The notes beneath the pieces were generated by a model. It worked only from the letters and a program-made list of their open reading frames with translations. It was not told where the DNA came from and did not search any database. DNA of 64,000 nt, taken from positions 2,838 to 66,837 of the forward strand of contig JBEICQ010000001.1 in the NCBI GenBank assembly GCA_040383885.1, read 5' to 3'. Positions 6,001-58,783 of the stretch are shown here, in pieces. The DNA is from Flavobacteriales bacterium (lineage in GTDB: Bacteria; Bacteroidota; Bacteroidia; UBA4408). Both the position numbers and the translations under genes were made by a program. Every line of letters starts with the position of its first letter. Within the stretch, counting starts at the first letter, position 1.

Positions 6001-6270
6001 GAGGGTGTTTGAGTTGGTCAATATCACATTGCCACCTACAGGAGCATCAAACCAGGTATAAGCATTGGCACCGGAATTTCCGCCACTTACTGTAAGCGTT
6101 ACTGTAGCAGGGCCACAACTTTGGGCATTATTTACCGAAAGTGCATTGTATTCGTAAGCACCAATATCCGGATTGTTTACGCGAGCAACACCACGCTGGT
6201 CGTTGGCTGGAGCCGATGTTGAACCTGCATCTATGGCAGGACTACAGGCGGTGAGTGCCAGTGTTTGTGT
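1..6270 (-). repeat. Tandem array of diverged Ig-like domain-coding repeats (~230-250 nt period) inside the giant surface-protein gene
   Basis: Protein-level periodicity of the Cys…C-x-G-D/G-S-V-x-L motif every ~80 aa. The DNA copies have diverged and none are identical. Confidence 0.55.
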
Positions 6271-7263
6271 AGCCCCTCCGTTATCACTCAGAGCTGTGCT
6301 GATTAAATCCGTACCCGGAAGTGCAAAAATATTTCCGGAGGTGTTGGCTCCCGGAGCAAATTCAAATCCGGTAGAATCAGAGAAAAGGTTGTGTCCCTGA
6401 GCAGATAAAATTCTGGTGTCTGTACTGTCAGGATTCACCCTGATGTCATTACCGGTATCCTGTACATTCTGGGCATCGTTGTTGCCAACAAAACTATTAT
6501 TGAGGGTAATGAAACCTGCATTGAGATAGATACCCCCACCATTACCTTGTGAAATATTATTAGCGATGGTAGTACTGTTGATGGTGGTGTTACAAGGCGT
6601 AATGATATCGATGGCACCTCCTACCCCTGCTACATTATTAGAAAAAGTGCAATTGGTAATTGTAAGAGTGGAGTTTAATCCGGCAACGGCCAAGCCCCCG
6701 CCGATACCATTGCTATTGATGTTATTGTTGATGGTGGAATTTAAAATGGTAACATTCGCGTCATTGTTAATAAGAACTCCTGCTCCTGTATTTTGAGAAC
6801 CTAAGTTCTGGCTGATTTGACAATTGTTTAGAACGACTGTAGCATCTTCGATGAGCATCCCGCCGCCTGAGCCAAAACCATTCTGAACCTTTATGTTGGA
6901 AATAGTGACCACAAGATCATTTAAGGTATTGGGATCGGATATCTTGAGGATGGGGAAAAGGAAATTACCACTCAGCGTAAACATGGAGGCTGCCGGACCT
7001 TCCAACACTGTGTAGTTGAAAATGGTTGGTAATTGGGAGGTCAGATTTACCACTCCGGAAACCTGTATCAGAATCAGGTGTGGGTCTCCAGATGTTGTGC
7101 CTTCTGAATTGGCGTCAAGGATGGCCTGTCTGAATGACCCGGGACCGTTATCAAGGGTGTTGGTCACAGGAAATGTAGATGCCTTTGATACCATTGTCTG
7201 CAGCAGCAGAGCAAGTATCAAGAAGAGAACCGGCTTAATGGATTTGATCATACGCTCGCTCAT
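1..7263 (-). CDS. Giant secreted cell-surface protein, partial. N-terminus is in the window and the gene continues past position 1. Signal peptide, Pmp-like parallel beta-helix repeats, then ~25 tandem Ig-like (SprB/PKD-like) repeats. Probable T9SS cargo/adhesin
   Basis: The minus strand is one continuous open frame from the ATG at 7263 to the window edge. It is absent from the ORF track only because there is no stop codon in the window. Reverse translation starts MSERMIKSIKPVLFLILALLLQTMVSKAST, a signal peptide. GGxI/L motifs follow (GGGMLI, GGGLAV, GGAIDI, GGGIYL), typical of polymorphic-membrane-protein right-handed beta-helix. After that come repeating ~75-85 aa units with conserved Cys pairs (…FCQGDSVVLSS…, …ICAGDSLTLTS…, …CNGCS…). 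All plus-strand ORFs listed here are short antisense ORFs. Confidence 0.75.
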   Translation of the reverse strand, partial: MSERMIKSIKPVLFLILALLLQTMVSKASTFPVTNTLDNGPGSFRQAILDANSEGTTSGDPHLILIQVSGVVNLTSQLPTIFNYTVLEGPAASMFTLSGNFLFPILKISDPNTLNDLVVTISNIKVQNGFGSGGGMLIEDATVVLNNCQISQNLGSQNTGAGVLINNDANVTILNSTINNNINSNGIGGGLAVAGLNSTLTITNCTFSNNVAGVGGAIDIITPCNTTINSTTIANNISQGNGGGIYLNAGFITLNNSFVGNNDAQNVQDTGNDIRVNPDSTDTRILSAQGHNLFSDSTGFEFAPGANTSGNIFALPGTDLISTALSDNGGATQTLALTACSPAIDAGSTSAPANDQRGVARVNNPDIGAYEYNALSVNNAQSCGPATVTLTVSGGNSGANAYTWFDAPVGGNVILTNSNTLTLTNQAITDTFYVAENAACTTPRRYRAIVSIFPVPAIPTISTSGLPTNVCSGGNLDLTAVSATQPVTYQWSVGSTVLGTNVIQNATQAGNYTVTVTTAPGAGSCSRTSAPLTLNFLPPPPVPTIQSTAVGSPCSGDTVTLSTNAVENFYQWNFNGSPLPGDTGTSIRVITPGDYTLTVSSTINCSTTSSIFTLNFNPLPAPPVMGIVSGSLTFCLGDSVVLQSSYPAGNTWRLLSNPGNVISSQNSIAIYQAGTYRLTHTDGLGCSSFTDTAIVVHVPVIPTIAASGPITFCDGDSVLLVSSPASSYQWLFNGVSTSNTNDSIVIKTSQSVSVVTTDINNCSDTSAVVQVVVNPIITPVISPAGPITLCQGETVQLSSSINTGNIWSNGATSQTISVGTAGNYIVTIPGCSAPSVPVTVFVNPLPVQPVVNPGDTSFCEGNPVTFTSTTSGGTLVWNDANATTGTQLTISQPGNYVVTVTETDANSCSSTSNPIAVIVHPTPLSPQITAGGPTTFCQGDSVVLSSNQLTGITWFEASAPTSPISNSPTRIFDTPGTYFVVFQDDNECLSGQSNSITVTVNSAIAPIIQASGPLSFCEGDSVNLFIAPQPLVSILWTPGNQTTPAITVDSTLSGITVTITDANNCSATSPSVNVTSSQIITPVITSNSGSNQICAGDSLTLTSSSLNNNVWFKDGDSLNLSTRSIVVSDSGSYTVIVNGCSNMSAPFPVSINPLPNQPQVSSPSNFTNCAGDSVLLVTSSLASLYQWNPGISSNNDSVYVETPGAYNVTVFNGFGCSSTSSDVTVTFSPQPASPLIVSSNGNTICSGGSSTLSASNYSTGLAWTLPDNFTLTSPTISATQNGVHSVIFTDQTTGCSSLPSLFNLQVLSSQQPVITTLGSPSFCQGGSVVLTSNLTSGFTWQGTPPPVNPNEISITVTQSGTYTLFNTICNQSSNPVTITVNPNPVVPVISPSQDTAICQGSSLTLVSSALSGNTWNDNSTNDSLLVVAGGNYFVTVTDVNGCSSQSAPVNVSILTTPLVSLPPSTTQCGGSVVLNATTPGSSYVWSGTNTTAADTLATLNVNASGTYSVTVTNVCGSTTSNIAAVTINPLPVISLNDTSSCDPPIILDAGNVGSTYLWSNASTSQQILALSSGNYTVQVTNAQNCSASKTIAVTINTGSPVVSLGNPPAQCGGSITLDAGNPTALQYQWSGPGVTPADTNRLFTANQSGTFSVTVTNACGSSSGQTTLTIHTLPTLELGGPVAQCGGTLELISPVQASLYEWSGPGILGSNSNDTVLVNVTGTYSLTITDVNNCTASDTKPVNLDNTLPVVNLGSSISTCADTVTLDAGNPGSSYDWSGTSTTAADTNQTLNVTATGAYFVTVTNGCGSTVSSAVNVEFLSDPNVDLGPDVQQCGGSVLLNSGITGANSYQWTRNGQSIGGNQPTLTVTQTGTYILLVSLQGGCQSSDTILVNLDGSLPVVNLGGPYDTCASSISLTAGGPQNTYTWTRNGTLLTDTTGTISVSQNGSYIAAATNGCGTTTSAPALVTLNPIPVVNLSDSSACNAAVLLDAGNPGSGYVWTGQGLTAADTTQIISVFQLGTNTYNVTVTNVFGCSASDSASVQVSLQLPTVSLGSDTAVCQSSVTVNAGNQGFTYLWSDNGPAQAVRTFSQTGLYFVDVTNACGTTRDSINITIGTPFSVNINNGVDSLLQCVLSGNNVVLTAGTFSAGSTYSWTGPGFVSGTSSPVAVTDTSGIYSLVVVQNACTSSDSIFVGTFDQLPIAPQFTDTTQCGGTVLLDAGAGDSNTTYLWTGAPGLPPTQTINVGSGNYTVTLTNICGSSTSDTVSVTINPLPVINLPSDTSACGGTLTLEAGTFPAGTAFLWTGPGIVGNSNLDTVVVDESGAYSVTVTNVLGCSSTDQINVNLDTIAPVVDLGGPFNNCADSVLLNAGNPGMTFSWTGPETLNNTQTNWVSAAGTYTVIVTNGCGITATDTAVVNLNTP

Positions 7264-13012: not shown

Positions 13013-14031
13013 GTAAAGATTCGCGTTCCTTCTGAGCAATTTTTACAAATATCAAGCTCTGCCCTGCTCCTGAAAATTTTTTTTCGAAACTCCATATAAG
13101 GTTCAGAGAACCATATACTCCGAAAATCTGAGCGATTGATATTGCCAAACCGGTAACTTGCATCCTTGTCAAAACAGCAGGGTACTGCAAATCCATCCCA
13201 AGTGATTACAGGAGATTGCCACATTCTCCAACAGTGGTTATATAATTTATTTTTGATACGAAACTTTCCACTCTCCGTTTGGCTGTATCGTGTAAATGCA
13301 GGGTTTTGGGGGATAAGCGCATTCCCCTCCTGGAAATCATACACCTGAGCTGTTTTAAATCTTATTTCATCCACACCAATGCTGTTTGCAAATGCTTTGG
13401 CTTGATTTACTTCATGTTCGTTATGACTGGTAAGCAAAAACTGAAAAATAAGATATGGCGTTTTGCTGCGCATCTCTTTTTTCCACTTAACCAGCAATCG
13501 GGTTCCGCGAATCACTTTATCAAGCTCTCCTCCTATTCTGTAGCTACTGTAAGATTCCTGAGTCAGTCCGTCCAGAGAGATGATTAATCTGTCGAGACCG
13601 GAGAGGATGGTTTGCCTGGCGATATTGTCATCAATAAAATGTGCGTTGGTTGAAGTAGCAGTATATAGACCTGCCTGCTTTGCCATGGCCACCATTTTTA
13701 GAAAGTCTTTATGAATATAGGGTTCACCCTGGAAGTACAAATTGGCATACAAGGCTGTTTTCCCAATATCCTTCAATGCTTTTTCAATTGTTGCAGACTT
13801 GATATTTCCGGTATCGCGGGTAAAACTTCTTAATCCACTTGGGCATTGCGGACAGCGCAAGTTGCATGCAGTGGTTGGCTCCAAAGCGATACTTATTGGC
13901 ATTCCCCACACAATTGGTTTACGCATTATTCGCGACAGGTAATAGGAAACAATCACAAAAAGTGCATTCTTAAACCGTGCAGGCGTAAACTTACTAAGTA
14001 GGTTTATTGAATCGAGGATTTTCCTCATCAT
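13009..14031 (-). CDS. Radical SAM protein with a C-terminal SPASM-like Cys-rich domain
   Basis: CxxxCxxC motif TACNLRCPQCP and a GEP motif (YFQGEPYI). The C-terminal cysteines are WDGFAVPCCFD…CKNCSEG. Its start overlaps the upstream gene by 4 nt. Confidence 0.8.
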   Translation of the reverse strand: MMRKILDSINLLSKFTPARFKNALFVIVSYYLSRIMRKPIVWGMPISIALEPTTACNLRCPQCPSGLRSFTRDTGNIKSATIEKALKDIGKTALYANLYFQGEPYIHKDFLKMVAMAKQAGLYTATSTNAHFIDDNIARQTILSGLDRLIISLDGLTQESYSSYRIGGELDKVIRGTRLLVKWKKEMRSKTPYLIFQFLLTSHNEHEVNQAKAFANSIGVDEIRFKTAQVYDFQEGNALIPQNPAFTRYSQTESGKFRIKNKLYNHCWRMWQSPVITWDGFAVPCCFDKDASYRFGNINRSDFRSIWFSEPYMEFRKKIFRSRAELDICKNCSEGTRIFT

Positions 14032-17000
14032 ACCTTAATGCCTATGACCAAAACATCATCAATCTGTTCAAGCTTGCCCTGCCATCTTTCGAGAATTTCT
14101 TCGAGCTTTTGTAATTGCCTGTTCATGGGTTCAGACTGAAGTCCAAGCAAAACATTTTTAAGCTGGTTGTATTTGAATTTTTTTCCTTCGCTACCTCCAA
14201 ACTGATCGGCATACCCATCAGAAAAAATATACAACGAATCTCCGGGAATGAGTTCAAATGTATGCAGCGTAAACGGAGGCAAATCCTTGGTAAGAAAAAC
14301 CCCAACCGGGAACTTGTTCCCTTTGATTTCATATAGCTTACATCCGTTTGCGCTAAGCACGGGCATATGGCCGGCCAGGGGCTCAGCATTGGCAGCGCGA
14401 ATGATATACAGGGGATTGTTTGCACCTGCAAAATCAAGGGTGTATGTTGAGGGATTCCAACGAAGCAAGGCAATGTCCATCCCATCTTTTGAATCGCTTC
14501 CTGCCTCGTTTTGTTTCAGGTCTCTGATGATGTTGTCTCTCAGCTGGGTGAGCACTGCATCAGGCCTCGTGATGTCTTTTTCGTTTACAATCTCGTTCAG
14601 GTTCTCATTACCAAGTAAACTCATAAATGCTCCCGGCACTCCATGACCCGTGCAGTCAACAGCTGCAATCATGCGGTAATCGTCTCTTTGGGTAGCCCAG
14701 TAAAAATCTCCGCTTACTATATCTTTTGGCTTAAAAAAGATAAAACTTTGTTGAAAGGCACGCTGAATAAATTCCCTGCTTGGCATGATGGCATCCTGTA
14801 TCCGGCGGGCATAAAAAATGCTGTCTGTAATCTCCTTGTTTTTATTTTCAATCTGGGATTTCTGTTTTCTCAACTCACTCGTTTGGTTGTGAATAATTCT
14901 ATTGAGATTTTTGGTGTACAGTATGACTATCTGAACCACTAAGAACAGACCAAAAATTGAGTAAAGTAAATAGGCCCACCAGGTTCTGTACCATGGCGGC
15001 TTAATGGAGAAACGGAAGGTTTGGTTTATACTGAAATTGTGATAAATGTTCTTGCACTGTACTTTAAAAGTATAGGTGCCTTCACTGAGATTGGTGTAAA
15101 TGGCTTCCTTTCGGTTTGAGAATTCAGTCCAGCCTTTGTCATTTCCTTCAAGGATGTAACGGTATTGATTGTAATCCTCCCTGATGAAATAATTTGAACC
15201 CAACTTGAAGATGAGGTTATTGTTTTCGTAGGGAAGTTCGGGATAAGCTGTGGAGGGCTGACTAACAACCGGCGTTCTTACAGTTTCGGTAAGGAAAGGA
15301 TGTTGCACTTCCACGAAAAAATTACCGCTGAAAATTTCTCTTCCATTACTTACTATCCGTCTGATGAGACTTGAAAAGTTTTTCCGGACCTGAACATTTC
15401 CTTGTTTGTTGTTGTACACCACCGCACCAAAATTTCCTACAATCCAAAGATCTCCTGCCTTGCTGCAATAAAACTGTTTAACCTCAAATTCTGATGGAAA
15501 GATTCGAAAAGGATAAGACCTAAAACCCGAGAGCTTACCGTTAGCATACTCAAAAAAACCATGCTCCGGATATTCCTTTAAGCGGCCATTCACTTGGGTA
15601 TGTTTGATGGCTTCTACCCAATATCTGTTGCCTATGTATTCGCAGGATATGATTTGTCTCTTGTTTGCTGTTGAAAATTCCTTGCCAAAAAAATTGCTGA
15701 TTCTTGTGTATGCCTTGCCTCGCTTATCAACACCTGCGATGAGCGTATGGTAATCAGCGAAAACAAATACCTGTCCTTTGCCTCTCGAGAGCGTGATTTC
15801 TGATTCAGTTTCAGGTACAGGAAATTTTACGGTTTGCACCCTGTACTTCACAAATCTGAAACCAAGCGTGTTTTTAAGCAAGGGAGTAATACAGTAAAGT
15901 GCATTCTTAGAACACCAGAGATTCCCGTCTACATCTTCGTTTAATTGTCTGATTTCATCTTCCAACCCATCTACATATCCTCTTTTTATCCAGCTTCCGG
16001 AAACATATTCCATCACAGCCACTCCGGAACCAAGGCCCAGATAAACGATTCCGGGATATTTTTTTGAAGGTAAAATATTATACACCGCATCGTCTTCATC
16101 AAAAATTTTCACTGCATTTTGATCATTGATGGTGTAAAGTCCTTCTTTGTTTCCAAGGAGCAGGTGATTGCTTCCATCGGAGGATTCAAATACCGCAATC
16201 TTCCAGCATTCCGGCCCAACAGATGGCAAGGAATTCAGCTGGGGCTCACCCGGATTTTTATAAAAAAGACCAAGCGTGGTGGCAAAGTATAGCTTGTTTC
16301 TAAATTCAGTAACAGATTCTACTTTCCCTTTCAGGCCGTTGGTTTCATTGAAATACCTGAAAGGACTGTTTAATTCAATGGAAGTGATTCCATTTTCCAG
16401 GGCCAACCAAAGCAGATGATCCTCGTCCTCAAAAAGAAAATGGATTTTTTCGTTCTGGATTCCGCTTTTGGTATCAATGATTTCGAAGTGAGTGATGTCC
16501 TGGTCCACTATCATCAACCCTCCCAATAGCGTTCCAACAGCAATTTTACCATTCGATAGGCGAATGGCCTTGAATACTTTGTGTCGAATAAGCAAGGTTG
16601 AAATATCATTTTTAACTTTTTCAATTTTAATTTCTCTTCCCAGGCCCTCTTTATCTATGCTTCTGCTTCCTGCCGGCAAGGTAAATTTCAATAATCCCAA
16701 ATCCTGGCTGCCACCGTAGAGCGTATTTGGTCCATCAGAAAGTAAAAAATCGAGTCTGCTATCCTGCAGCAAATCGCTCCCTTTGATGGGAATCAGAGCC
16801 TCATTGCCCACCTCAACAAGTCCGATTCCTTTTTGCCGTATGTAGATATGGTTCCCGAACTGAAAAGCTGTGTGGAATTCTCCCTCTGATTGCCAAACCC
16901 TGAACTTCCCATTGCGTAGCCTGAGCACTTTTGTTTTTGAGATGAAGTACACTGCATCGGATGTAACAAAAGTAAAATACACATAACCGAGACTACGGTC

Positions 17001-17381
17001 GTTTGGATTTAACCTGTGTTTCAGACTGTGAAATTTCTGTTTGCCTTCGGCATTGATATCAATGTAACCGATATCATCTTGTAGTCCGGCAAAAACTAAT
17101 CCGGAGGATGAATCAAGAGCAAGAGAATTAAAAACCGTATTCCCCCAGTTCTCCCAGGTAACACCATCATATTGAAAAACACCTGTGTTGTAACCAAAGT
17201 ACAAAAGCCCTTTTTTGTCCTGTGTGATGGACCAGATTTGGGTAGGCGTTTCATATTCCTTGTCGGAATAATTTCTAATATGGTAAAGACCCTCTTCTTT
17301 GCAAACCCCGGAAGCAGGAAAAACAAGGGATAGTATAAAAAGTATGCCCGCAGGAAAAGGCAACCGCAATAGTAATTGCAT
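14028..17381 (-). CDS. Sensor PP2C (SpoIIE-family) protein phosphatase. Signal peptide, periplasmic beta-propeller/Y_Y_Y-type sensor region, single TM, coiled coil, C-terminal PP2C domain
   Basis: The 1117-aa product has an N-terminal signal sequence, repetitive propeller-like segments and a TM helix WWAYLLYSIFGLFLVVQIVILY. Coiled-coil segments follow. The PP2C motifs are AVDCTGHGVPGAFMSLLG and DGYADQFGG. Confidence 0.85.
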   Translation of the reverse strand: MQLLLRLPFPAGILFILSLVFPASGVCKEEGLYHIRNYSDKEYETPTQIWSITQDKKGLLYFGYNTGVFQYDGVTWENWGNTVFNSLALDSSSGLVFAGLQDDIGYIDINAEGKQKFHSLKHRLNPNDRSLGYVYFTFVTSDAVYFISKTKVLRLRNGKFRVWQSEGEFHTAFQFGNHIYIRQKGIGLVEVGNEALIPIKGSDLLQDSRLDFLLSDGPNTLYGGSQDLGLLKFTLPAGSRSIDKEGLGREIKIEKVKNDISTLLIRHKVFKAIRLSNGKIAVGTLLGGLMIVDQDITHFEIIDTKSGIQNEKIHFLFEDEDHLLWLALENGITSIELNSPFRYFNETNGLKGKVESVTEFRNKLYFATTLGLFYKNPGEPQLNSLPSVGPECWKIAVFESSDGSNHLLLGNKEGLYTINDQNAVKIFDEDDAVYNILPSKKYPGIVYLGLGSGVAVMEYVSGSWIKRGYVDGLEDEIRQLNEDVDGNLWCSKNALYCITPLLKNTLGFRFVKYRVQTVKFPVPETESEITLSRGKGQVFVFADYHTLIAGVDKRGKAYTRISNFFGKEFSTANKRQIISCEYIGNRYWVEAIKHTQVNGRLKEYPEHGFFEYANGKLSGFRSYPFRIFPSEFEVKQFYCSKAGDLWIVGNFGAVVYNNKQGNVQVRKNFSSLIRRIVSNGREIFSGNFFVEVQHPFLTETVRTPVVSQPSTAYPELPYENNNLIFKLGSNYFIREDYNQYRYILEGNDKGWTEFSNRKEAIYTNLSEGTYTFKVQCKNIYHNFSINQTFRFSIKPPWYRTWWAYLLYSIFGLFLVVQIVILYTKNLNRIIHNQTSELRKQKSQIENKNKEITDSIFYARRIQDAIMPSREFIQRAFQQSFIFFKPKDIVSGDFYWATQRDDYRMIAAVDCTGHGVPGAFMSLLGNENLNEIVNEKDITRPDAVLTQLRDNIIRDLKQNEAGSDSKDGMDIALLRWNPSTYTLDFAGANNPLYIIRAANAEPLAGHMPVLSANGCKLYEIKGNKFPVGVFLTKDLPPFTLHTFELIPGDSLYIFSDGYADQFGGSEGKKFKYNQLKNVLLGLQSEPMNRQLQKLEEILERWQGKLEQIDDVLVIGIKV

Positions 17382-21820: not shown

Positions 21821-22879
21821 TCAGAAGCAGATTCCCGCAACACAAATATCATCTACCTGAGGCAGTTTAACCCTCCATGAAAGATGCTTTTGTAAAAGAT
21901 TTTCTTTCTGTTCTTCGGGGGAGAGATTTGCAATAGCTAAAACCAGTTTTTGCATGCTGCCTGTCATAAATTTCTTGCCTTTGTCTCCTCCAAACTGATC
22001 GGCATAGCCATCCGTATGCAAATACATCCTCAAACCATCCTTGATGGAAATAACATGCTCGGTAAAATTTTCCCTGTCTTCGAAAACCAAACCACCGATG
22101 GCGTGTTTGTTGGGTTTTATTTCTGTAAATACGGTTTCATCCACAAGCCAGCATGGCCTGTTGGCACCTGCATATCGTATTTCTTTTTGCAAAGTATCCA
22201 TGCTTACCAGGGCAATGTCCATTCCATCGCGTGAAGCATACTCACCCCGGTCCTGCTTGAGCGTAATCCTGATGTTGTGGTCGAGTTCATCCAGAATGGC
22301 TGCAGGAGAAGTTACCCCTTTTTCTTTTACAATCTGGTTGAGCAGGGTATTGCCAATCATGCTCATAAATGCACCCGGCACGCCGTGGCCCGTGCAATCT
22401 GCAATGGCAAGCAAACAGGAATGAGGACCTGTTGCATGAAACCAGTAAAAATCTCCACTCACAACATCCCTTGGCAAATACAACACAAATAATCCCGGCA
22501 GGTGCTGGCGCATTTCCTGCATTTCGGGCAAGATAGAATGCTGGATGATACGGGCATACTCGATGCTTTCGGTAACCGAGCGGTGCTCTTCCTCAACCAC
22601 CATACGCAACTGATCAATTCTTTCTTTTTCCTGATGGATGCTTAAGCTTTGCTGCCAGAGTTTTTTTATCCTTTCATCGAGCCTGGATTTTTCCTGCTCG
22701 AGTTTTTGTTTTTCGGAAGCAAGTACCGCATTGGCTTCTTCAATTTTTTTACGCTCATTGTGCACTGCCTCACTCATCTGCCAGAGCTTGCGGTTTTTTT
22801 CGGCAACGGTCTCCCTCTCTGCTTCCAGCTTTGCAATGCGCTGCAATAAATCATTTATTTCTGAAGCAGAATCGGGCAT
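21821..22879 (-). CDS. Coiled-coil PP2C (SpoIIE-family) protein phosphatase, last gene of the DUF1987-TIR-STAND operon
   Basis: The N-terminal ~130 aa have heptad repeats (LLQRIAKLEAERETVAEKNRKLWQ…). The PP2C domain carries IADCTGHGVPGAFMSMIG and DGYADQFGG. Confidence 0.85.
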   Translation of the reverse strand: MPDSASEINDLLQRIAKLEAERETVAEKNRKLWQMSEAVHNERKKIEEANAVLASEKQKLEQEKSRLDERIKKLWQQSLSIHQEKERIDQLRMVVEEEHRSVTESIEYARIIQHSILPEMQEMRQHLPGLFVLYLPRDVVSGDFYWFHATGPHSCLLAIADCTGHGVPGAFMSMIGNTLLNQIVKEKGVTSPAAILDELDHNIRITLKQDRGEYASRDGMDIALVSMDTLQKEIRYAGANRPCWLVDETVFTEIKPNKHAIGGLVFEDRENFTEHVISIKDGLRMYLHTDGYADQFGGDKGKKFMTGSMQKLVLAIANLSPEEQKENLLQKHLSWRVKLPQVDDICVAGICF

Positions 22880-22906: not shown

Positions 22907-23866
22907 TTATTCTTTCTCAATTTCTTCAACAAAGGCATTCAGGTTTTTTTCATAGGTTTTGTGCCTTGCCTTTATCTCCAGGCCTTTTTGGGTAAAGTGA
23001 TCCTGGTCGGCCATATACTCTTCCATTTTAGGAGGAATGGTATTGCTGTATAAGCCGGGAGCCCAATGCAATTGTCTGCCCAAAAACCAAATGGCCAATA
23101 CGGAAATACATACAAATGTTTGCCTGTGCAGGGGTTGAAAAACCGGAAGATTATCAGGGGAAATTTGCTTTTTCAAATACATCAAAAACAAAGAAAGGCT
23201 GCAAACAAAAAACAATATCAATGCAAGAAAAGATATTGGATTTCCTCCGGGCCAGTGTTGTGTTTTAAACATGATTCCCATAAAACTGATTGCCATAAAC
23301 AAGTTAGCGGTAACATGAAATACACCCGGCAAAAAACCCTTCATGGATTTGTGTAACCGAAAAGAAAAGGCACGGAAGAATAAATAGAAAAAAACACAAC
23401 ACCCTAAAACAAAAACAAGGGAGGCACCCGGAACATGTTGAAACTTGGAAGCCATCCCCACCAAGAGCATGGACATAAGCAAGGGAAAGACAAATTTCTG
23501 TTGCTTTTTGGCAGCTATCATCAATGTAAGTAAGGATAATAAAGGCAGGAAAGCTGCAGCGGCAAAAACCCATTCATTTTGGATGACAAATGAAAATTGG
23601 GGAAACACGAAAAGAAAATGAAATATCCACCAGGGGAAGAGAAGCCACTTGATTTTTTTACTTCCCGGATGCAGTTCAAAAGCCTCCAGCAACAGGAGGA
23701 ATGAGAGGATTCGATAACACCAGGCCACCAATTGCAAACCCCAGGCGTTTTGAGCCATGTTGGAAAAAAAGCCCAGCAAGACCAAGAACAGAAGGGCGGT
23801 CATCTGGGTATATCTGGTTTGGGAGTTTTTCATGGTTTCTTCAATAACATCCTTACTTATTGCCAA
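22907..23866 (-). CDS. Polytopic membrane protein (~8 TM) with four internal 2-TM repeats, each ending in a (K/R)xQHWPG-like motif. No recognised family
   Basis: Repeated motifs are EAFELHPGSKK, ASKFQHVPGAS, MFKTQHWPGGNP and GRQLHWAPGLY, each following a pair of hydrophobic helices. The cytoplasmic C-tail is charged. The start overlaps the STAND gene stop by 10 nt. Alternative ATGs exist at 23833 and 23803. Confidence 0.6.
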   Translation of the reverse strand: MAISKDVIEETMKNSQTRYTQMTALLFLVLLGFFSNMAQNAWGLQLVAWCYRILSFLLLLEAFELHPGSKKIKWLLFPWWIFHFLFVFPQFSFVIQNEWVFAAAAFLPLLSLLTLMIAAKKQQKFVFPLLMSMLLVGMASKFQHVPGASLVFVLGCCVFFYLFFRAFSFRLHKSMKGFLPGVFHVTANLFMAISFMGIMFKTQHWPGGNPISFLALILFFVCSLSLFLMYLKKQISPDNLPVFQPLHRQTFVCISVLAIWFLGRQLHWAPGLYSNTIPPKMEEYMADQDHFTQKGLEIKARHKTYEKNLNAFVEEIEKE

Positions 23867-26800
23867 TTGTTTATTACGGAATTGTATCTGTCAATAGAAA
23901 AGTTCTTCAGATTGGGTGTGTACAATTGGTTTCTCTTGTTGTAATGCATGATCATCCAGGTATTCAACCAAAAACGCATGCCTGATATTTCCTTATCAGC
24001 AATTAGTTGCTCTGCATCATAGAGCACACCCCTGTCAACGAGCCCCGAAAAATAACTGTACCTGTGCCTATCGTTTCTGCCTTCGGTATTAAAGGCAATG
24101 CGCCTGGCAAAACCCTCACAATCCTCTCCTCCTATTTGTGCCAGCATCCTCATGTACTTCTGTGGCATTTTGTTGAGCCGGTGTTTTTCCTTGGCAAACA
24201 GGTGTTGCATCAGGGGCAGGGCATTTTCTTCGTATCCCTTGTCTATAAAAGTTTGGGCCAACATCAGTACATCATCCTGCCTTATCAGGTGTAAGCGGCT
24301 ACTGTCGAGGAAAGTGGCCACTTCTTTTGCGCGCCCTCTTAGAATCAATGTTCTGCAAAGCCCGGGTATGTTAAACACATCAAAATACCTGTTTTCTGCT
24401 GGTATGCTGATTTCCTTTTTTTGGGGCAAGGCTTTTTTTCCGTACAACATGGTTACCCAATCAAAATAATTGGTGCGCGCAATTTCACTTGTTGCAAATG
24501 TTTTCTTAAGCAGTTTATGATAAAAAGATGCCAACTCCGGTTTGGTTTCAAAAAAGTTTTCATCAAGCGCTTGTCCTTGTATGGCTTTAAGCACATCCCC
24601 AGTCAAATACATGGTATCAGCAAGTCCAGACATCGCATAAAACTGTTCATTGTTGTTGTACACTTCACTTTGGGGCCAAGGAATTTCATCAGGATTATTT
24701 TCGTTCCAGTAAGACACATAAAATCGTCCATCAAAAGGATTTGCAGAGGACTCATAAAACGCCAAAAAAATACCTGCAAAGGTTCCTGGTATGGAATAAA
24801 TAAAATCACCCCCTGACATATCAATGGATGTATTGGATGCTTTACCTATGGGGCTGTTTTTGTTTTCTATTAGATTAAATTGCTGCCATGAGGTAAGTAT
24901 GGCTGCTTGTTCACCTGCCGTGTCGCCTGCATGCTTCAAATAAGCAGCGTATTTTTTGTGGTACAACGCCAGCAAAAGTTTTTGCTGGTTTGTATTCAAT
25001 CCTCTTTTCGTTATTGAGGCCATCAGGTATTCATGGGCAGCGTCTACTGCTTCTTTCGGCCAAAAATACTGGCACATGGGAGGGAATCTTTTTTCAATAT
25101 CCTGTCCACTTAAAAGATCCTGTACTGAGTAATACAACATTTTTACTGAGAGTTTCCGTATCCTTTCCTCCTTTCCGCAGATGCGTTCAATGGTCTTAAA
25201 GGTTTCGGAGGCCGTGTGTTTTTTGTTGGAAAGAAGTGTCCCGAACAAGAGCAGGTCGTCAATGGTTTTTAGCTTGCCTTCCCGGTTAAAACCCTGTTCG
25301 TTTTGAAAGGTATTGACAAAATCATTCCTTGAGGCGTATTCCTGTCTGTGGAAGAACAAAATTTGTGGGACAAATAAGCCGTTGTTTACATAGCCCAGCG
25401 GAGCAGCTTCGGTTTTTTCTGCATCAAATAACTTTCTGCATTTTTCCTGCAGGGCTGACACATCTCCATGGGTATCGAAGTAAGCAGACAACAAAGGATG
25501 CTCATGCCTCAGCATACAGTTGGCAGCAAACAGGGGATTGAAAGAAATTTTTTCTAGAAATACTTTTTTTGGATTTTTTTCCTTGTATCGAATCACTGCC
25601 AGCATCAGTTGTTCGTTTATGGCATGCGTCTTTTCTTTTAGCTCTTCTATGTCCGGTACACCGGCAATGCTTAACCATAAGAGCAGTTTCGTCCATACAT
25701 GTGCCGTCAGGATATTTACCTTCCCGATTTTTTGCTTGTTCAGTTGTATTGTCTGCTCTTCTGCAATTTTTTGAAAGGAGGAAAAACCATGGCCGGCGAG
25801 CTTGCTCAGAAACTGCAAGTCCCTGCTGTAAGAGGCAGTATCGATATCCTTCCTTAAAGACCAAACAATGGCTTCCTTGATGAGCGTAAACTGCGTAGAG
25901 TCTTCCATGTTGCGGATGGCCTCCATAAACACTTCTGCATCTGCCGAGTCGCGGTTGTAGCGGCTGTATTCTATCAAAAAGGCGGCTTTCTTTTTTTCGG
26001 AGATGTAGGGGTTATTGATGTTCTCCAGGTTAAATGCCATGACCCTGTCTATGACCTGGTCATTTTGTTTGGAGTACCAGTCGAAATAAAAATACATGCA
26101 GGAACAAAGCACCAGGACGACGCCGGCATGCATAAGCAGGCGGTTGGCGCCATAGGCCAGCACAAAGCGGCTGAGCATCAGGTTGCGGGCACTGGCTTTG
26201 ATAAACACCCCGGCTTCCTGCAATTCTTTTTTAAAATGTATTTTTCTTGCTTGCTTTTCCTCTCCTGACTCATCGTACTTCAACAACCACCCTGCCGAAG
26301 GTCTTTTTTGGGCAAACCAGTGCTCAAAATAATTCAGTGAGCCAATCGGCAAGAGGTAGCCTCTTTCTTTTTTGTTGGTATACCAACGCTGCATCTGCAC
26401 CAAAAAATCGGCATACACCATGCGGTCGTCGTATTCCTGCCGGGACAATTCCTGCAAAAGTTCCCAGTTACGAATCAGGCTCTCGTGGCTGATGTCGAGC
26501 AGGCTGTCGGGAGAAAGAACCGGCTGTTCATTGTCATAGGGCTTGATGAGGGTATTTCCCTGCTTTCGGAAATGAGAAACAAACACCGCCACATGTTCAG
26601 GGGTAAAATCCTGTTCAGCGATTATTTCCGCTATCTCAGCTACTGTCATGCGGTTGCGCACATACCTTCCGGCATCTGCTTTTACCAGGCACTGCAAAAG
26701 GGTATTTAAGATATAAGCGCTTCTGGAAACCCAGGGCATCTCTGAATACTTGCTTTTTACCTCTTCCAGTGTTTTTTCATATAACTCGCCTGCATGTGCA

Positions 26801-27837
26801 TTCAGCACATTCTCCAGAGAGGGACGGTCAAAATATTTTCTTTTCTGATCGCTTTGTTGTTCCAACCATGTGTCAAATTCCTTTCGCTCGTTCTCATCTA
26901 AAAAATCCGGTGGCACTCCTGCCAGTTTCACCAGGGAAGGAATGTCCATGGGTTTTTGTGTTTCTCCCTCTCCATAGGACAAGTGCCACAATTGGTTGAG
27001 TGCATGCTGCAAAACCGGCAACTGATCAAAGCCGCTGCCAATGGCATTTACAAGGGTTTCTGTAAGCCTGGGCGTAATGGCACCCCCGGCAAGTTTTGCC
27101 GGCTCTGCAATCACTTGCTGCAACTCTTTGCGCTTGAGTCGTGGAACAAAAAACTGTGAAAAGCCAATCATCTCGGGCAGGCCGCGGAAAGCCGCACATT
27201 GTCCGATATAATCGCTGCGCATGGTGCATACCACATAGACAGGCAGCGATTGTGCATGAGCAATCTTTGCTGTTTCAATCAGCAGGTTTAATACGAGTTG
27301 TGCTTCATCGCTCGGAACTCCGTGGCTAAAGTTTTCGGGATTGGTAAAGAACTCTTCAAACTGGTCGGCAAGGATAATGAGATTGGCACCTTTTTTTTCG
27401 AGATTTTTTTTGCCTTCCTCATCCGTGTTCTGGTATGCTGAACTTTGGGGATCCACAAAAAACCCTGAGGATGCATACAATTGCAGAAGGGCCGAGAATC
27501 CATGCTGCAACTTTTCTTTTACCTGTTTCTCCTCCATCTTTAGTGCAGAAGCTACAGCCTTTGCAAGCATTTGTAGCGGAGAACGCGAAGGCGTGAAATC
27601 AGCCAGAAGCCATGAATTGAAGCGTGCTTTAAAAAATCCTGCCCTGGCCCTTGGAATCAAACCGGCATAGGTGAGTGAAGATTTTCCGTCGCCACTGGCA
27701 CCGGTGATCATCAAAAACCTGTTCTGTTCGAGCAGTGTTACAGCTTTGGCAGTATGGGCATCTCTGCCTTTAAAAAAGATGGATTCGTCCTCGGTAAACG
27801 GGCGCAATCCGGGATATGGACAAATGAGTGGTTCCAT
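23857..27837 (-). CDS. nSTAND-type (STAND-superfamily) P-loop NTPase, 1326 aa, with a mid-protein TM helix and a long alpha-helical C-terminal region
   Basis: The N-terminus MEPLICPYPGLRPFTEDESIFFKGRD matches the conserved nSTAND lead-in. Walker A is FLMITGASGDGKSSLTY and a Walker B-like motif is LIILADQFEEFF. A predicted TM segment is LLMHAGVVLVLCSCMYFYF. About 800 aa of helical repeat-like sequence follows. Confidence 0.75.
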   Translation of the reverse strand: MEPLICPYPGLRPFTEDESIFFKGRDAHTAKAVTLLEQNRFLMITGASGDGKSSLTYAGLIPRARAGFFKARFNSWLLADFTPSRSPLQMLAKAVASALKMEEKQVKEKLQHGFSALLQLYASSGFFVDPQSSAYQNTDEEGKKNLEKKGANLIILADQFEEFFTNPENFSHGVPSDEAQLVLNLLIETAKIAHAQSLPVYVVCTMRSDYIGQCAAFRGLPEMIGFSQFFVPRLKRKELQQVIAEPAKLAGGAITPRLTETLVNAIGSGFDQLPVLQHALNQLWHLSYGEGETQKPMDIPSLVKLAGVPPDFLDENERKEFDTWLEQQSDQKRKYFDRPSLENVLNAHAGELYEKTLEEVKSKYSEMPWVSRSAYILNTLLQCLVKADAGRYVRNRMTVAEIAEIIAEQDFTPEHVAVFVSHFRKQGNTLIKPYDNEQPVLSPDSLLDISHESLIRNWELLQELSRQEYDDRMVYADFLVQMQRWYTNKKERGYLLPIGSLNYFEHWFAQKRPSAGWLLKYDESGEEKQARKIHFKKELQEAGVFIKASARNLMLSRFVLAYGANRLLMHAGVVLVLCSCMYFYFDWYSKQNDQVIDRVMAFNLENINNPYISEKKKAAFLIEYSRYNRDSADAEVFMEAIRNMEDSTQFTLIKEAIVWSLRKDIDTASYSRDLQFLSKLAGHGFSSFQKIAEEQTIQLNKQKIGKVNILTAHVWTKLLLWLSIAGVPDIEELKEKTHAINEQLMLAVIRYKEKNPKKVFLEKISFNPLFAANCMLRHEHPLLSAYFDTHGDVSALQEKCRKLFDAEKTEAAPLGYVNNGLFVPQILFFHRQEYASRNDFVNTFQNEQGFNREGKLKTIDDLLLFGTLLSNKKHTASETFKTIERICGKEERIRKLSVKMLYYSVQDLLSGQDIEKRFPPMCQYFWPKEAVDAAHEYLMASITKRGLNTNQQKLLLALYHKKYAAYLKHAGDTAGEQAAILTSWQQFNLIENKNSPIGKASNTSIDMSGGDFIYSIPGTFAGIFLAFYESSANPFDGRFYVSYWNENNPDEIPWPQSEVYNNNEQFYAMSGLADTMYLTGDVLKAIQGQALDENFFETKPELASFYHKLLKKTFATSEIARTNYFDWVTMLYGKKALPQKKEISIPAENRYFDVFNIPGLCRTLILRGRAKEVATFLDSSRLHLIRQDDVLMLAQTFIDKGYEENALPLMQHLFAKEKHRLNKMPQKYMRMLAQIGGEDCEGFARRIAFNTEGRNDRHRYSYFSGLVDRGVLYDAEQLIADKEISGMRFWLNTWMIMHYNKRNQLYTPNLKNFSIDRYNSVINNWQ

Positions 27838-27838
27838 G

Positions 27839-28726
27839 CTATGCAGCGCTGCCCTCCTTTGCTTTTTCGTATTGCACTTTTATTTCAAGTGGAATTAAAA
27901 TACCATCAATAATCATACACAATACCCTGGGGGCTTTTAATTGAACATTCCGGTTGTTTTCCGGGTTGGTATCTCCAATCAAAAGGATGGGTGTTTTCAT
28001 GGAGGCTCCACCTGCGCGTTTCCATATTTCCTGGGTAAAAGGAAGGGCCCAGTCCGAGGAGGTTTTGAAGTACACGACTGCCAGGCGGCTTTTAGAAATT
28101 TGTTGTGTGCAATAGGCTGCATAATCGGTATCGCTGTTTTGCACAATACTGATATTATGTGTTTTTACCACATCTCCCAGCATGTCGAGCACATCGGCTG
28201 CATCAACTTCATCAAGGTGGTTAGATATAAAAAACACCTCCGTTTCGCTGAGGTCATAGTGGATTTGTTTTTCTTCGGAGAACTCCTGCCTCACATCATC
28301 TGCAAACTCAATAGGTGATGACACATTGCTAAAGGTCATCTGCTCGGAGAGCGCATTCCTAACCAGGCTAATGAAAGCCGATTGTTTGGGCTCGGGGATA
28401 AAGCTCCCCACATTGGGTGGATACCAGATAAAAAGTTTGAAGCCGGGTTTGTTTTGTATATAATCCAACAGGATGCGAAACTGAAACTCCGGCAGAGAAA
28501 AACTGCCTTGTAAAAAATGATGAACCGGGCCATATTCGCTGCTGAGCATGCAAACTGCTCCGCTGCATTGCTCAAGTGTTGTGAGTACCTCCTGCGGAAA
28601 TGCAGAAAGGTTGGCAGCATCAAAAACAGGACTCAGAGAGGAGATGCCTGCATTGCTAAAAACCTGGCCAAGGCTTTGTAAGTGTTGATGTCGTTGTGCG
28701 GAATCATCCGCAAAAAAGCAGAGCAT
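27839..28726 (-). CDS. Protein with two tandem TIR-like (flavodoxin-fold) modules
   Basis: Module 1 has MLCFFADDS…LGQVF…AVCMLSSEYGPVHHFLQ. Module 2 has VFFISNHLDEVDAADVLDMLGDV…AVVYFKTSSDWALPFTQEIW. Both follow the TIR strand/helix pattern (hydrophobic-FISYS-like strand, …L…L..G…F.D, …hhhS..Y..S.WC..E). There is a 1-nt gap to the STAND start and a 3-nt gap after the DUF1987 stop. Confidence 0.45.
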   Translation of the reverse strand: MLCFFADDSAQRHQHLQSLGQVFSNAGISSLSPVFDAANLSAFPQEVLTTLEQCSGAVCMLSSEYGPVHHFLQGSFSLPEFQFRILLDYIQNKPGFKLFIWYPPNVGSFIPEPKQSAFISLVRNALSEQMTFSNVSSPIEFADDVRQEFSEEKQIHYDLSETEVFFISNHLDEVDAADVLDMLGDVVKTHNISIVQNSDTDYAAYCTQQISKSRLAVVYFKTSSDWALPFTQEIWKRAGGASMKTPILLIGDTNPENNRNVQLKAPRVLCMIIDGILIPLEIKVQYEKAKEGSAA

Positions 28727-28729
28727 AGA

Positions 28730-29113
28730 TTAGTCTTCCACCGATTCCAGTGTAAAGGGATGTTTAACCAGGTTGGACATGTCCTCACCGGCTTCAAGCA
28801 TATCCGTATCGTTGGCATCATAGCGCCAGGTTACCTGTAATTTGGTTTTGCCGTCATTGTTGAGGGCCACCATTTTTTTGAGCATTTCTATGATGATTTT
28901 TGCGCTGCTTGTATTAAAGTACTCCAGGTAAATGATCAGGTGAGTGGCCGGATGGGGGGAACCTGAGTAAGTTTCAATCCAATGCTTTACGGGACCGTAA
29001 AACTTGATGGTATTTTCAGGGATTGATTTGCCTTTGAATTCAAGTGTTCCGGATGCATGATTCAGTGATACATAGGGGGTGTTCACTGTTTCAGTAATTT
29101 CGAGTGTTTCCAT
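28730..29113 (-). CDS. DUF1987 (SiaC-like) protein, probable partner-switch phospho-target
   Basis: METLEITETVNTPYVSLNHASGTLEFKGKSIPENTIKFYGPVKHWIETY has the DUF1987/SiaC signature. The internal ATG was chosen as start. The longer track ORF adds a hydrophobic leader translated from the divergent promoter region. Confidence 0.65.
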   Translation of the reverse strand: METLEITETVNTPYVSLNHASGTLEFKGKSIPENTIKFYGPVKHWIETYSGSPHPATHLIIYLEYFNTSSAKIIIEMLKKMVALNNDGKTKLQVTWRYDANDTDMLEAGEDMSNLVKHPFTLESVED

Positions 29114-35054: not shown

Positions 35055-36980
35055 ATGAACACACTGTTACACAAGGTTCCCGAGTCACAGGCTATCGAAC
35101 TTCCGGCCCTGGAAACTTCAAGGATGCTGACCGGTTTTGCATCCCTGATTTCTGCAGGAAAACTTCCTGAGAAAAAGGATGTTTTGTTCGCGTTGGCACT
35201 TAGCAGGGAATTGCGTAACCAGGCATACATCGGTCAAAGTCTATACTACTTGGCGCAGGTCTTCTTAGCCGATGAAAATCCACGCCAGTCACTTATTATT
35301 CTTGACGAAGCAAAAAAATTGCTTGCAGGTGAAGACAAGCCCCTTGTGATGCTGCAATGCCTCGAACTCACAGGCAAAGTGTATCAATCCCTGGAGGATT
35401 GTGAGATGGCGCTCGGCGAATACTTCTCAGCACTCGAAATCATCAATGAAAATCTTTCCCTTGAATACTGCAAGGGTTCCCTTCACCACAAAATTGGAAT
35501 GGCGTTTAAATCAACCCGTGATTTTGACAATGCCGTTTCACATTTCCGTAAATACCTTCATTTATCAGAAAAATACAAGCAGAGCAATGACATTGCCCAG
35601 GCCTGTTTTGAATTGGGCAACATGCTTACCCTGAGTGATGAGTATGCAGAAGCTGCTGTTTATCTGCGCAAATCACAGGAGATGGCTTTTGTCATGGGCA
35701 ATAAACATCTTGAATTGTTTGCTCTTGTTACCCGTGCCATTCTGAAAACCCGTTTGCGTCAGTTCAAAAAAGCCATGGCCTTGTTCGAAGAAGCAGAAAC
35801 TGGAATCCTGGCCAATGGTAATGAGGAAATAAAAGCCCACCTGCTGAGAAGCAAAGCCAAGTTGTTCATCGACATGGAACTCTATCCTGAAGCACTTCAA
35901 TTGCTGGATGAAGCTAGGATGTTGGCCGAAAAACTAAAATTAAACCAGGTGTTGCTGATGGTGTATAAATTTTACACCGTAGCCCATGAAGCCATGGGAA
36001 AATTTCAGTCGGCGCTGGAATTCAACAAACTTCATTTCAACCTTGAAAAGAAAATCCTTGAGGACCGTTCCAAAACCAGGGTGCATGGTCTTCAAATGAA
36101 GTTTCAGATGGAAGAAGTTCTGAAAGAAAATGAAATATTTAAATTAAAGAATGTGGTTCTGCAGCAGGCCAACGACAAGATCTTGCAACAGAAAAATAAA
36201 ATCGAGGCTTTTCATACCGAGCTTACTTCAAGTCTCACATATGCCAGCAAGATTCAGCGAGCTATTTTGCCACTGAAAGAAGAAATTTCCGAAACTTTGC
36301 CCGGACATTTTGTGTTCTGGAAGCCGCGTGATGTGGTGAGTGGCGACTTCTACTGGCATTTCAATGCAAAAACCCATACCTATATTGCTGCAGCCGATTG
36401 CACAGGTCATGGTGTACCGGGAGCCTTTATGAGCATGATCAGCAACACCATTCTCAACGAAGTGGTAGGCTCTAATCCGAATCTTTCTCCGGCTGAAATT
36501 CTCACCATGCTCAACCTGGAAATTAAAAAAGCACTGAAACAGGATTTGGGTGAAAAAGAAAGTCATGATGGTCTTGACATTGCCCTTTGTAAAATCGATA
36601 ATACCAGTGGTGTAATCACCTTTAGCGGAGCAAACAGACCTCTTTATTTGGTAAAAAAGGGAGCTGATGAAATTACAGAAATCAAATCAGACAAAGGTTC
36701 TATCGGCGGAATGCATTCTCATAATGACAGGTTTTTTGCGCAACATTCCATACAACTGGAAAAAGGAGACAGGGTGTATCTTTTTACAGATGGCATCACC
36801 GATCAGTTTGGTGAAGACACGAACAAAAAATTGCGCCCTGTTAATTTCCGAACCTGGGTGATGGAAAGTGCGGGTATCCCCTTTGATGAATTGGAACATT
36901 ACTATGCCGGAAAACTGGCTGAATGGCAAAAAGAGGAAAACCAAACAGACGACATTCTGGTGATGGGGTTTGGTTTGTGA
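35055..36980 (+). CDS. TPR-repeat PP2C (SpoIIE-family) protein phosphatase
   Basis: The N-terminal ~330 aa are TPR-like helical repeats. Coiled-coil sequence follows. The PP2C domain carries AADCTGHGVPGAFMSMIS and DGITDQFGE. Confidence 0.85.
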   Translation: MNTLLHKVPESQAIELPALETSRMLTGFASLISAGKLPEKKDVLFALALSRELRNQAYIGQSLYYLAQVFLADENPRQSLIILDEAKKLLAGEDKPLVMLQCLELTGKVYQSLEDCEMALGEYFSALEIINENLSLEYCKGSLHHKIGMAFKSTRDFDNAVSHFRKYLHLSEKYKQSNDIAQACFELGNMLTLSDEYAEAAVYLRKSQEMAFVMGNKHLELFALVTRAILKTRLRQFKKAMALFEEAETGILANGNEEIKAHLLRSKAKLFIDMELYPEALQLLDEARMLAEKLKLNQVLLMVYKFYTVAHEAMGKFQSALEFNKLHFNLEKKILEDRSKTRVHGLQMKFQMEEVLKENEIFKLKNVVLQQANDKILQQKNKIEAFHTELTSSLTYASKIQRAILPLKEEISETLPGHFVFWKPRDVVSGDFYWHFNAKTHTYIAAADCTGHGVPGAFMSMISNTILNEVVGSNPNLSPAEILTMLNLEIKKALKQDLGEKESHDGLDIALCKIDNTSGVITFSGANRPLYLVKKGADEITEIKSDKGSIGGMHSHNDRFFAQHSIQLEKGDRVYLFTDGITDQFGEDTNKKLRPVNFRTWVMESAGIPFDELEHYYAGKLAEWQKEENQTDDILVMGFGL

Positions 36981-58711: not shown

Positions 58712-58783
58712 GGTCCCGTAGTACAACGGATAGTACGGAGGTCTCCGGAACCTCAGATTTGCGTTCGATTCGCAACGGGACCA
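58712..58783 (+). tRNA. tRNA-Arg (anticodon CCG), 72 nt, CCA not encoded
   Basis: Acceptor GGTCCCG/CGGGACC. D arm GTAC-AACGGATA-GTAC. Anticodon arm GAGGT-CTCCGGA-ACCTC with anticodon CCG. T arm TTGCG-TTCGATT-CGCAA. Discriminator A. Confidence 0.8.

Follow-up and report, generated by a model that had tools for sequence, protein, structure and literature searches.

A two-domain TIR/DUF4062-like protein with glutamine at the catalytic glutamate position, linked to an nSTAND1 NTPase across the Bacteroidota

The locus and the predicted fold of X

We focused on a 295-amino-acid (aa) two-domain protein, hereafter X, that is encoded by an open reading frame (ORF) on the minus strand of a 64,000-nucleotide (nt) stretch from a Flavobacteriales bacterium (assembly GCA_040383885.1, contig JBEICQ010000001.1, positions 2,838 to 66,837; hereafter, the window). 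A preliminary description of this DNA, made from the sequence alone, had read X as two tandem TIR-like modules that could pre-form the dimer interface of an NADase (NAD-cleaving enzyme) and that are probably co-expressed with a STAND NTPase. The ORF and the four peptides quoted there were all found in the sequence, at residues 1-9 (MLCFFADDS), 57-71 (AVCMLSSEYGPVHHF), 163-173 (EVFFISNHLDE) and 216-230 (AVVYFKTSSDWALPF). The next gene does encode a STAND NTPase, of the nSTAND1 family, and a single nucleotide separates the stop codon of X from its start codon (TAG-c-ATG). On the minus strand the genes are ordered as SiaC-like protein, X, nSTAND1, GldL_N-like membrane protein and PP2C phosphatase. 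The features of X and of the NTPase are as follows.

27839..28726, minus strand: X, two-domain protein of 295 aa (ORF; 304 homologues; AlphaFold2 model)
28277..28726, minus strand: N-terminal domain of X, aa 1-150, DUF4062/TIR-like, (beta-alpha)5
28481..28483, minus strand: codon of Q82, Gln at the DUF4062/TIR catalytic Glu position (PF13271 mutant probing, column counts, published motif)
27842..28255, minus strand: C-terminal domain of X, aa 158-295, family-specific and flavodoxin-like
23857..27837, minus strand: nSTAND1 STAND NTPase, 1326 aa (Pfam PF20703, E 3.5e-63, aa 7-492)

X is encoded by a real, conserved gene: 304 homologues were found at E<=1e-3, most of them about 290 aa long, and the family is annotated solely as 'hypothetical protein'. 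The protein is soluble, as no hydrophobic segment or predicted transmembrane (TM) helix was detected in its sequence. Scans of X against NCBIfam and PADLOC gave no match, and neither did a PDB sequence search with X alone. An AlphaFold2 model built from a 62-sequence alignment had a mean predicted local distance difference test score (pLDDT) of 83.8 and contained two consecutive (beta-alpha)5 alpha/beta domains, at residues ~1-150 and ~160-295. Both the strand-helix pattern that the preliminary description saw in each half and the flavodoxin-like fold that its reading depended on are present in this model. A Foldseek search of the full model against the PDB was not discriminating, with unrelated two-domain alpha/beta proteins dominating at high root-mean-square deviation, and with TIR, CheY, DNPH1 and Ras structures all near E 1e-2.

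The two domains of X and the catalytic position

The N-terminal half is supported as a member of the TIR/DUF4062 superfamily. X alone matched the Pfam family DUF4062 (PF13271) below threshold (E 0.087, 13.5 bits vs a cut-off of 24.7), and 44 of the 62 X-family members matched it (best 3.4e-10), as did 27 of the 62 for TIR_2 (best 1.8e-5). The top 11 PDB matches of an X-family profile were all TIR-domain chains (E 0.05-0.3), these matches being weak and confined to the N-terminal half. Residues 1-150 also adopt the (beta-alpha)5 flavodoxin-like fold of TIR domains in the model. DUF4062 domains are TIR-like NADases that act in anti-phage defence, with the catalytic Glu at E97 in KpSwz (Swarozyc) and at E1008 in the TIR-like domain of human TEP1 (bioRxiv 10.64898/2026.05.01.722283), and Eva01 (Evangelion) has the motif 'acidic-SYT ... 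E87-Y88' with E87 as the catalytic Glu (bioRxiv 10.64898/2026.06.25.731849). X shares with these enzymes the beta-A aromatic residue, the 'YG' after beta-C, the Ser of the SYT motif and the (beta-alpha)5 fold, but SYT is degenerate (S-L-P) and the catalytic Glu is replaced by Gln. Its gene is chromosomal and phylum-restricted, unlike those of the DUF4062 NADases, and not on plasmids or defence islands. The non-catalytic adaptor TIRs of animals (IL-1RAcP, MyD88, MAL, TRIF) have no sequence kinship to X that is detectable beyond the superfamily.

The catalytic position was located by scoring point mutants of one X-family member against PF13271 (baseline 24.2 bits). Changing Q to E in the segment 'S-F-P-Q-H-Q-F' raised the score by 2.8 bits, FP to YT by 6.0 bits, F to Y by 1.1 bits and a downstream E to Y by 0.8 bits, and S to A lowered it by 3.7 bits. 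The Pfam model therefore ends in S-Y-T-x-x-E-Y-x-y-A, which places the Gln of the X family on the catalytic Glu. In X this residue is Q82, with S77 ahead of it and F83 next to it (S-x4-Q-F, compared with S-Y-T-x-x-E-Y in DUF4062). Gln occupies position 82 in 57 of the 62 close relatives and in 108 of 142 broader relatives, the others of the latter set including 10 with H, 6 with E and 4 with D. The surrounding pocket is still conserved in the broader set, with S77 in 119/142, F/Y83 in 115/142 and the beta-A aromatic (F/Y4) in 122/142. At position 85, the sole nearby position with Glu in many relatives, X itself has Ile. Helix C of X thus has no catalytic Glu in either the DUF4062 (S-Y-T-x-x-E-Y) or the TIR (W-x-x-x-E) arrangement, and the search for a conserved catalytic Glu that the preliminary description had proposed came out negative because Gln stands at the Glu position and Ile at 85. 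A retained pocket combined with Glu-to-Gln replacement is the pattern that would be expected of a ligand-binding pseudoenzyme.

The C-terminal half is the more conserved of the two, with a mean column identity of 75%, and the domain is 55-80% identical across the phylum. Its near-invariant residues in the 142 relatives are W226, G239-G240, E281 and K283. A Pfam scan of 29 isolated C-terminal halves gave no consistent match, a profile hidden Markov model of this half found only 90 matches among 1.84 billion representative proteins, all of them from the X family, and no TIR-specific similarity of aa 158-295 was found beyond the generic flavodoxin-like fold. Since the two halves show no significant similarity to each other either, the C-terminal half appears to be a family-specific flavodoxin-like domain with no sequence link to TIR, that is, a new conserved domain without relatives elsewhere. 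No such additional domain follows the DUF4062 domain in the known NADases.

Two other origins of this half were considered and rejected. An internal TIR duplication was unsupported by BLASTP of the N-terminal against the C-terminal half (E=40) and by hhalign (score 16.2, E 0.068, with 17% of column-shuffled nulls scoring as high), the latter being insensitive with such small alignments, so that this negative result is weak evidence. A CheY-like receiver, which the 'DWALP' segment might suggest, found no Response_reg match in the 62 full-length members or the 29 C-terminal halves, and in the model D225 lies where helix C begins, four residues past the strand and not at the strand end. Of the two tandem TIR-like modules originally proposed, the N-terminal one can thus be kept as TIR/DUF4062-like and the C-terminal one is left without TIR-specific evidence. 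The NADase-competent tandem-TIR dimer is not supported, given this C-terminal half and Q82 in the N-terminal half.

Coupling to the nSTAND1 NTPase and the operon partners

A one-genome-per-species scan returned 268 relatives of X, and 80 loci were kept for neighbourhood counts, nearly all from Bacteroidota metagenome-assembled genomes (MAGs), plus Balneolaceae and one Ignavibacteriales MAG. In 74 pairs X is the gene directly upstream of nSTAND1 on the same strand; the gap between the two has a median of 12 nt and is <=30 nt in 49 of the 74. In addition, five proteins of 1418-1605 aa (P0176, P0187, P0200, P0207, P0208) are fusions in the order X, nSTAND1, TM helix, coiled coil and WD40. They include the whole two-domain module, and their nSTAND1 part begins at aa 301-335, 20-30 residues beyond the C-terminal domain. 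X is therefore found both encoded with a STAND NTPase and fused to the N-terminus of one, and it is because of these Rosetta-stone fusions that we regard it as a likely detached N-terminal module of the NTPase. A functional coupling of the two proteins is supported by their conserved adjacency, by the shortness of the gaps and by the fusions, so that the coupling drawn in the preliminary description holds, without the NADase role attached to it.

In the window NTPase a single predicted TM helix (aa 567-585) separates the NTPase part, which would be cytoplasmic, from a C-terminal region of ~700-740 aa that varies between lineages. Its N-terminus (ICPYPGLRPF...) is strongly conserved and has no effector domain of its own, the PF20703 match starting from residue 7. 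Residues 1-~630 are 43-51% identical across lineages, and for the extracytoplasmic region (~630-1326) no BLAST similarity between lineages and no Pfam match was detected, as might be expected of a diversifying sensor. Even in the closest relative (L004) the whole NTPase is 74% identical, compared with 91-92% for X.

A TIR-like N-terminus on a STAND NTPase with C-terminal repeats, as in the X fusions, is also the layout of TEP1 and NWD1 (DUF4062-NACHT-WD40), which we take to be a parallel, and of the TIR-STAND bacterial NLR-like/Avs proteins. The window system differs from these in having its N-terminal module on a gene of its own, an NTPase of the nSTAND1 and not the NACHT type, a TM helix that puts the C-terminal region of the NTPase outside the cytoplasm, and a TIR-like domain with no catalytic Glu.

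Some relatives carry further domains ahead of the Gln-bearing DUF4062-like domain. Long forms of 533-545 aa have an added N-terminal TIR_2 domain with a conserved 'W..EF' Glu, and those of 699-758 aa have TIR_2 plus a class III nucleotide cyclase (Guanylate_cyc) with intact-looking motifs. Alignment of their TIR_2 with either half of X by hhalign was uninformative (E 0.3-0.6).

L065:8759-10858, L082:8708-10870, L076:1313-3589: long forms with cyclase and/or TIR_2 before the Gln-bearing DUF4062-like domain (Chitinophagaceae/Saprospiraceae)
L064:6800-8407, L083:4360-5961: long forms of the same kind (Balneolaceae/Cytophagales)

In a second subtype the X module occurs with nSTAND1-WD40 and with PKD/Kelch and type IX secretion system (T9SS)-tailed proteins.

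Several loci departed from the simple pair. Two nSTAND1 paralogues of ~1345 aa each stand in tandem behind a single copy of the X module in L064, L065, L070, L072, L073, L077, L079-L081 and L083, an arrangement reminiscent of paired NLR receptors with one common adaptor. A second paralogous X module (296 aa) was found at L002:2406-7480, with a small GIY-YIG gene between the module and nSTAND1-WD40, and several other MAGs contributed two loci each (L045/L059, L034/L061).

The three remaining operon genes of the window are listed below.

28730..29107, minus strand: SiaC-like (DUF1987) phosphoprotein gene (Pfam SiaC 3.2e-34; PDB SiaC 6kko E 2e-12)
22907..23866, minus strand: membrane protein, multi-pass, its TM hairpins similar to GldL_N (4 or more hydrophobic segments; GldL_N E 2e-4)
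21821..22879, minus strand: phosphatase of the PP2C/SpoIIE family, coiled coil at its N-terminus, catalytic domain SiaA-like (Pfam SpoIIE 5.3e-17; NCBIfam SiaA 1.1e-58)

The SiaC-like gene stops 3 nt upstream of the X start (TAA-tct-ATG), and its product keeps the N-T-S motif that forms the phospho-site of PaSiaC (N67-T68-S69; PMC8457831). The PP2C protein is soluble, and its gene recurs downstream of nSTAND1 in most of the loci whose flanks are long enough. With a SiaC/DUF1987 homologue bearing N-T-S and a SiaA-like PP2C, the operon resembles the SiaABCD partner switch of Pseudomonas aeruginosa. It lacks a SiaB kinase and a SiaD diguanylate cyclase, however, its PP2C has no SiaA membrane/sensor region, and X, nSTAND1 and the GldL-like protein sit between the SiaC-like and PP2C genes.

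The membrane protein recurs in 'type A' loci. The window protein matches GldL_N below threshold, and its orthologues match at 5.8e-9 (36.4 bits, above the cut-off), 4.9e-5 and 4.7e-3. Its TM hairpins recall the GldL/GldM (PorL/PorM) and ExbB/ExbD/TonB-type motors, as does the nSTAND1 orthologue of Aurantibacillus circumpalustris CP121197 (L001:10907-13981), which after its TM helix is fused to GldM_2nd/3rd/4th and TonB_C. In contrast, the C-terminal region of the window NTPase has no GldM match, and a connection with type IX secretion or gliding would be speculative. The same Aurantibacillus genome has a HamA_HO-like gene just downstream of PP2C (L001:16343-17125).

Of the five operon proteins, only PP2C drew anything from PADLOC, and that was coiled-coil noise. 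The operon is flanked by apparent housekeeping genes (AnmK-like, glutamate dehydrogenase-like, YchF-like, SucC-like and RNase H-like), as judged by eye from their translations, with no family search.

A proposed role of X and the alternatives

We propose, in a reading that we hold about as readily as we doubt it, that X is the detached N-terminal module of a membrane-anchored nSTAND1 and serves as an adaptor or regulatory subunit and not as an NADase. The C-terminal domain would dock on the N-terminus of nSTAND1, because it is strictly conserved and directly abuts the NTPase in the fused homologues. The Gln-bearing N-terminal domain would be a pseudoenzyme that binds a nucleotide of the NAD+/ADP-ribose type as its ligand without cleaving it, since the pocket residues are kept and the catalytic Glu is now a near-invariant Gln; the same replacement in a retained pocket would also suit a domain that, in addition or instead, drives TIR-type homotypic assembly upon oligomerisation of the NTPase. 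The signal would probably enter through the hypervariable extracytoplasmic region of the NTPase and its GldL-like membrane partner. Judging from gene linkage, the output in the window would pass to the co-operonic PP2C and SiaC-like phosphoprotein as a partner switch, and in other lineages the Glu-bearing TIR_2 and the class III nucleotide cyclase may be the enzymatic heads.

Several observations weigh against this proposal. Glu occurs at position 85, on the same helix face and three residues downstream of 82, in 46% of the broader family, and it might rescue catalysis in the members that bear it, though not in X of the window, which has Ile; 6 of the 142 members have Glu at 82 itself. The mapping of Q82 comes from profile probing and the motif description and not from structural superposition, and docking, ligand binding and scaffolding are putative steps. 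SiaC adjacency is confined to the clade of the window and a few other loci, and the operon contains no SiaB-type kinase. Combinations of TIR, STAND and cyclase domains, as well as hypervariable sensor regions, are hallmarks of conflict and defence systems, so that X may yet act in defence.

These last features lend some weight to the view that X, as a pair of TIR modules with NADase activity, is the effector of a STAND-based (Avs/NLR-like) system against phages, which on activation would deplete NAD+ or make a TIR-derived signal. It would agree with the superfamily of the N-terminal half, whose DUF4062 relatives act as NADases in anti-phage defence (bioRxiv 10.64898/2026.05.01.722283; 10.64898/2026.06.25.731849), with the definition of nSTAND1 in predicted conflict systems (PMC8195603), with the hypervariable extracytoplasmic region of the NTPase, with the several paralogous X-nSTAND1 systems of some genomes and with the long forms that carry Glu-bearing TIR_2 and cyclase. 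We nevertheless consider it very unlikely, given Gln at the catalytic position and Ile at the alternative position 85, a second half with no TIR-specific support, the want of a meaningful PADLOC match for the five operon proteins, the apparent housekeeping flanks, and a C-terminal domain whose 55-80% identity across the phylum is unlike that of fast-evolving defence effectors. The context of X, with no PADLOC match, housekeeping flanks and SiaC, PP2C and GldL-like partners, points to signalling rather than to a classical NAD-depleting effector.

The effector or enzyme proper could instead be the C-terminal domain, perhaps as a pseudo-receiver that binds a small molecule or accepts a phosphoryl group under the control of PP2C, with the TIR-like domain as a remnant. 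This is improbable, as the 29 C-terminal halves do not match Response_reg or, with any consistency, another Pfam family, D225 is at the helix C start in the model of X, the tail of a model of the isolated domain is of low confidence, and the pocket residues of the N-terminal half are under selection; PP2C enzymes, moreover, act on phosphoserine and phosphothreonine and not on acyl-phosphates. There is a small but appreciable chance that both halves are pure protein-protein scaffolds without a ligand, X bridging nSTAND1 oligomers to the PP2C/SiaC switch in the manner of the animal MyD88/MAL adaptors. A pure scaffold would not be expected to keep so strictly S77, Q82 and the aromatic residue at 83 at the former active site, and adjacency to SiaC and PP2C is not universal.

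Returning to the adaptor or regulatory subunit, a wider extension of it is speculative and more doubtful than the proposal itself. Here X as a pseudo-NADase would sense an NAD-derived or cyclic nucleotide, or nucleate assembly, on a membrane-spanning NTPase that is wired to a GldL/GldM-type device and a PP2C/SiaC switch, forming a housekeeping envelope-to-cytoplasm pathway made from 'immune' parts.

We found no description of the X family or its operon in the literature searched on nSTAND1, EACC1, DUF4062 and SiaC. X is a new variant among the TIR-like/DUF4062 N-terminal modules of STAND NTPases, set apart by the Glu-to-Gln replacement, the undescribed second domain and the unusual partners. 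That DUF4062 domains are TIR-like NADases, both in defence against phages and in TEP1, a vault protein of humans, was shown in 2026, and the X family is a phylum-wide branch in which Glu is systematically replaced by Gln, the rest of the pocket is kept and the domain is tied, on a separate gene or by fusion, to a STAND NTPase that bears WD40 or envelope-spanning domains. It offers a natural test of whether bacteria can use TIR-like domains to sense ligands or to build scaffolds, as animals do in Toll signalling. The linkage of STAND NTPases to PP2C/SiaC partner switches and GldL/GldM-like components is a combination that we did not find described in the literature searched. If the wider extension is true, X would represent, in bacteria and as a conserved chromosomal gene, a counterpart of the TIR signalling that works without enzymatic activity, and its docking domain would be a flavodoxin-like one not described before.

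Elsewhere in the window we detected two further PP2C/SpoIIE phosphatases that are paralogous to the operon PP2C, at 14028-17381 (minus strand; phmmer 6.5e-58) and 35055-36980 (plus strand; phmmer 4.7e-67). One of them, of 1117 aa, has an extended N-terminal part and an apparent TM helix (translation read by eye), and in the other, of 641 aa, the long N-terminal region is helical. Phosphatase modules of the SiaA-like kind are expanded in this genome. A very large ORF of >2421 aa (1-7263, minus strand) begins near 7263 with a signal-peptide-like N-terminus and runs off the first base of the window, which is why no ORFs were listed in the first 7 kb. A tRNA gene at 58712-58783 (plus strand) was the sole match in the window at the Rfam gathering threshold.
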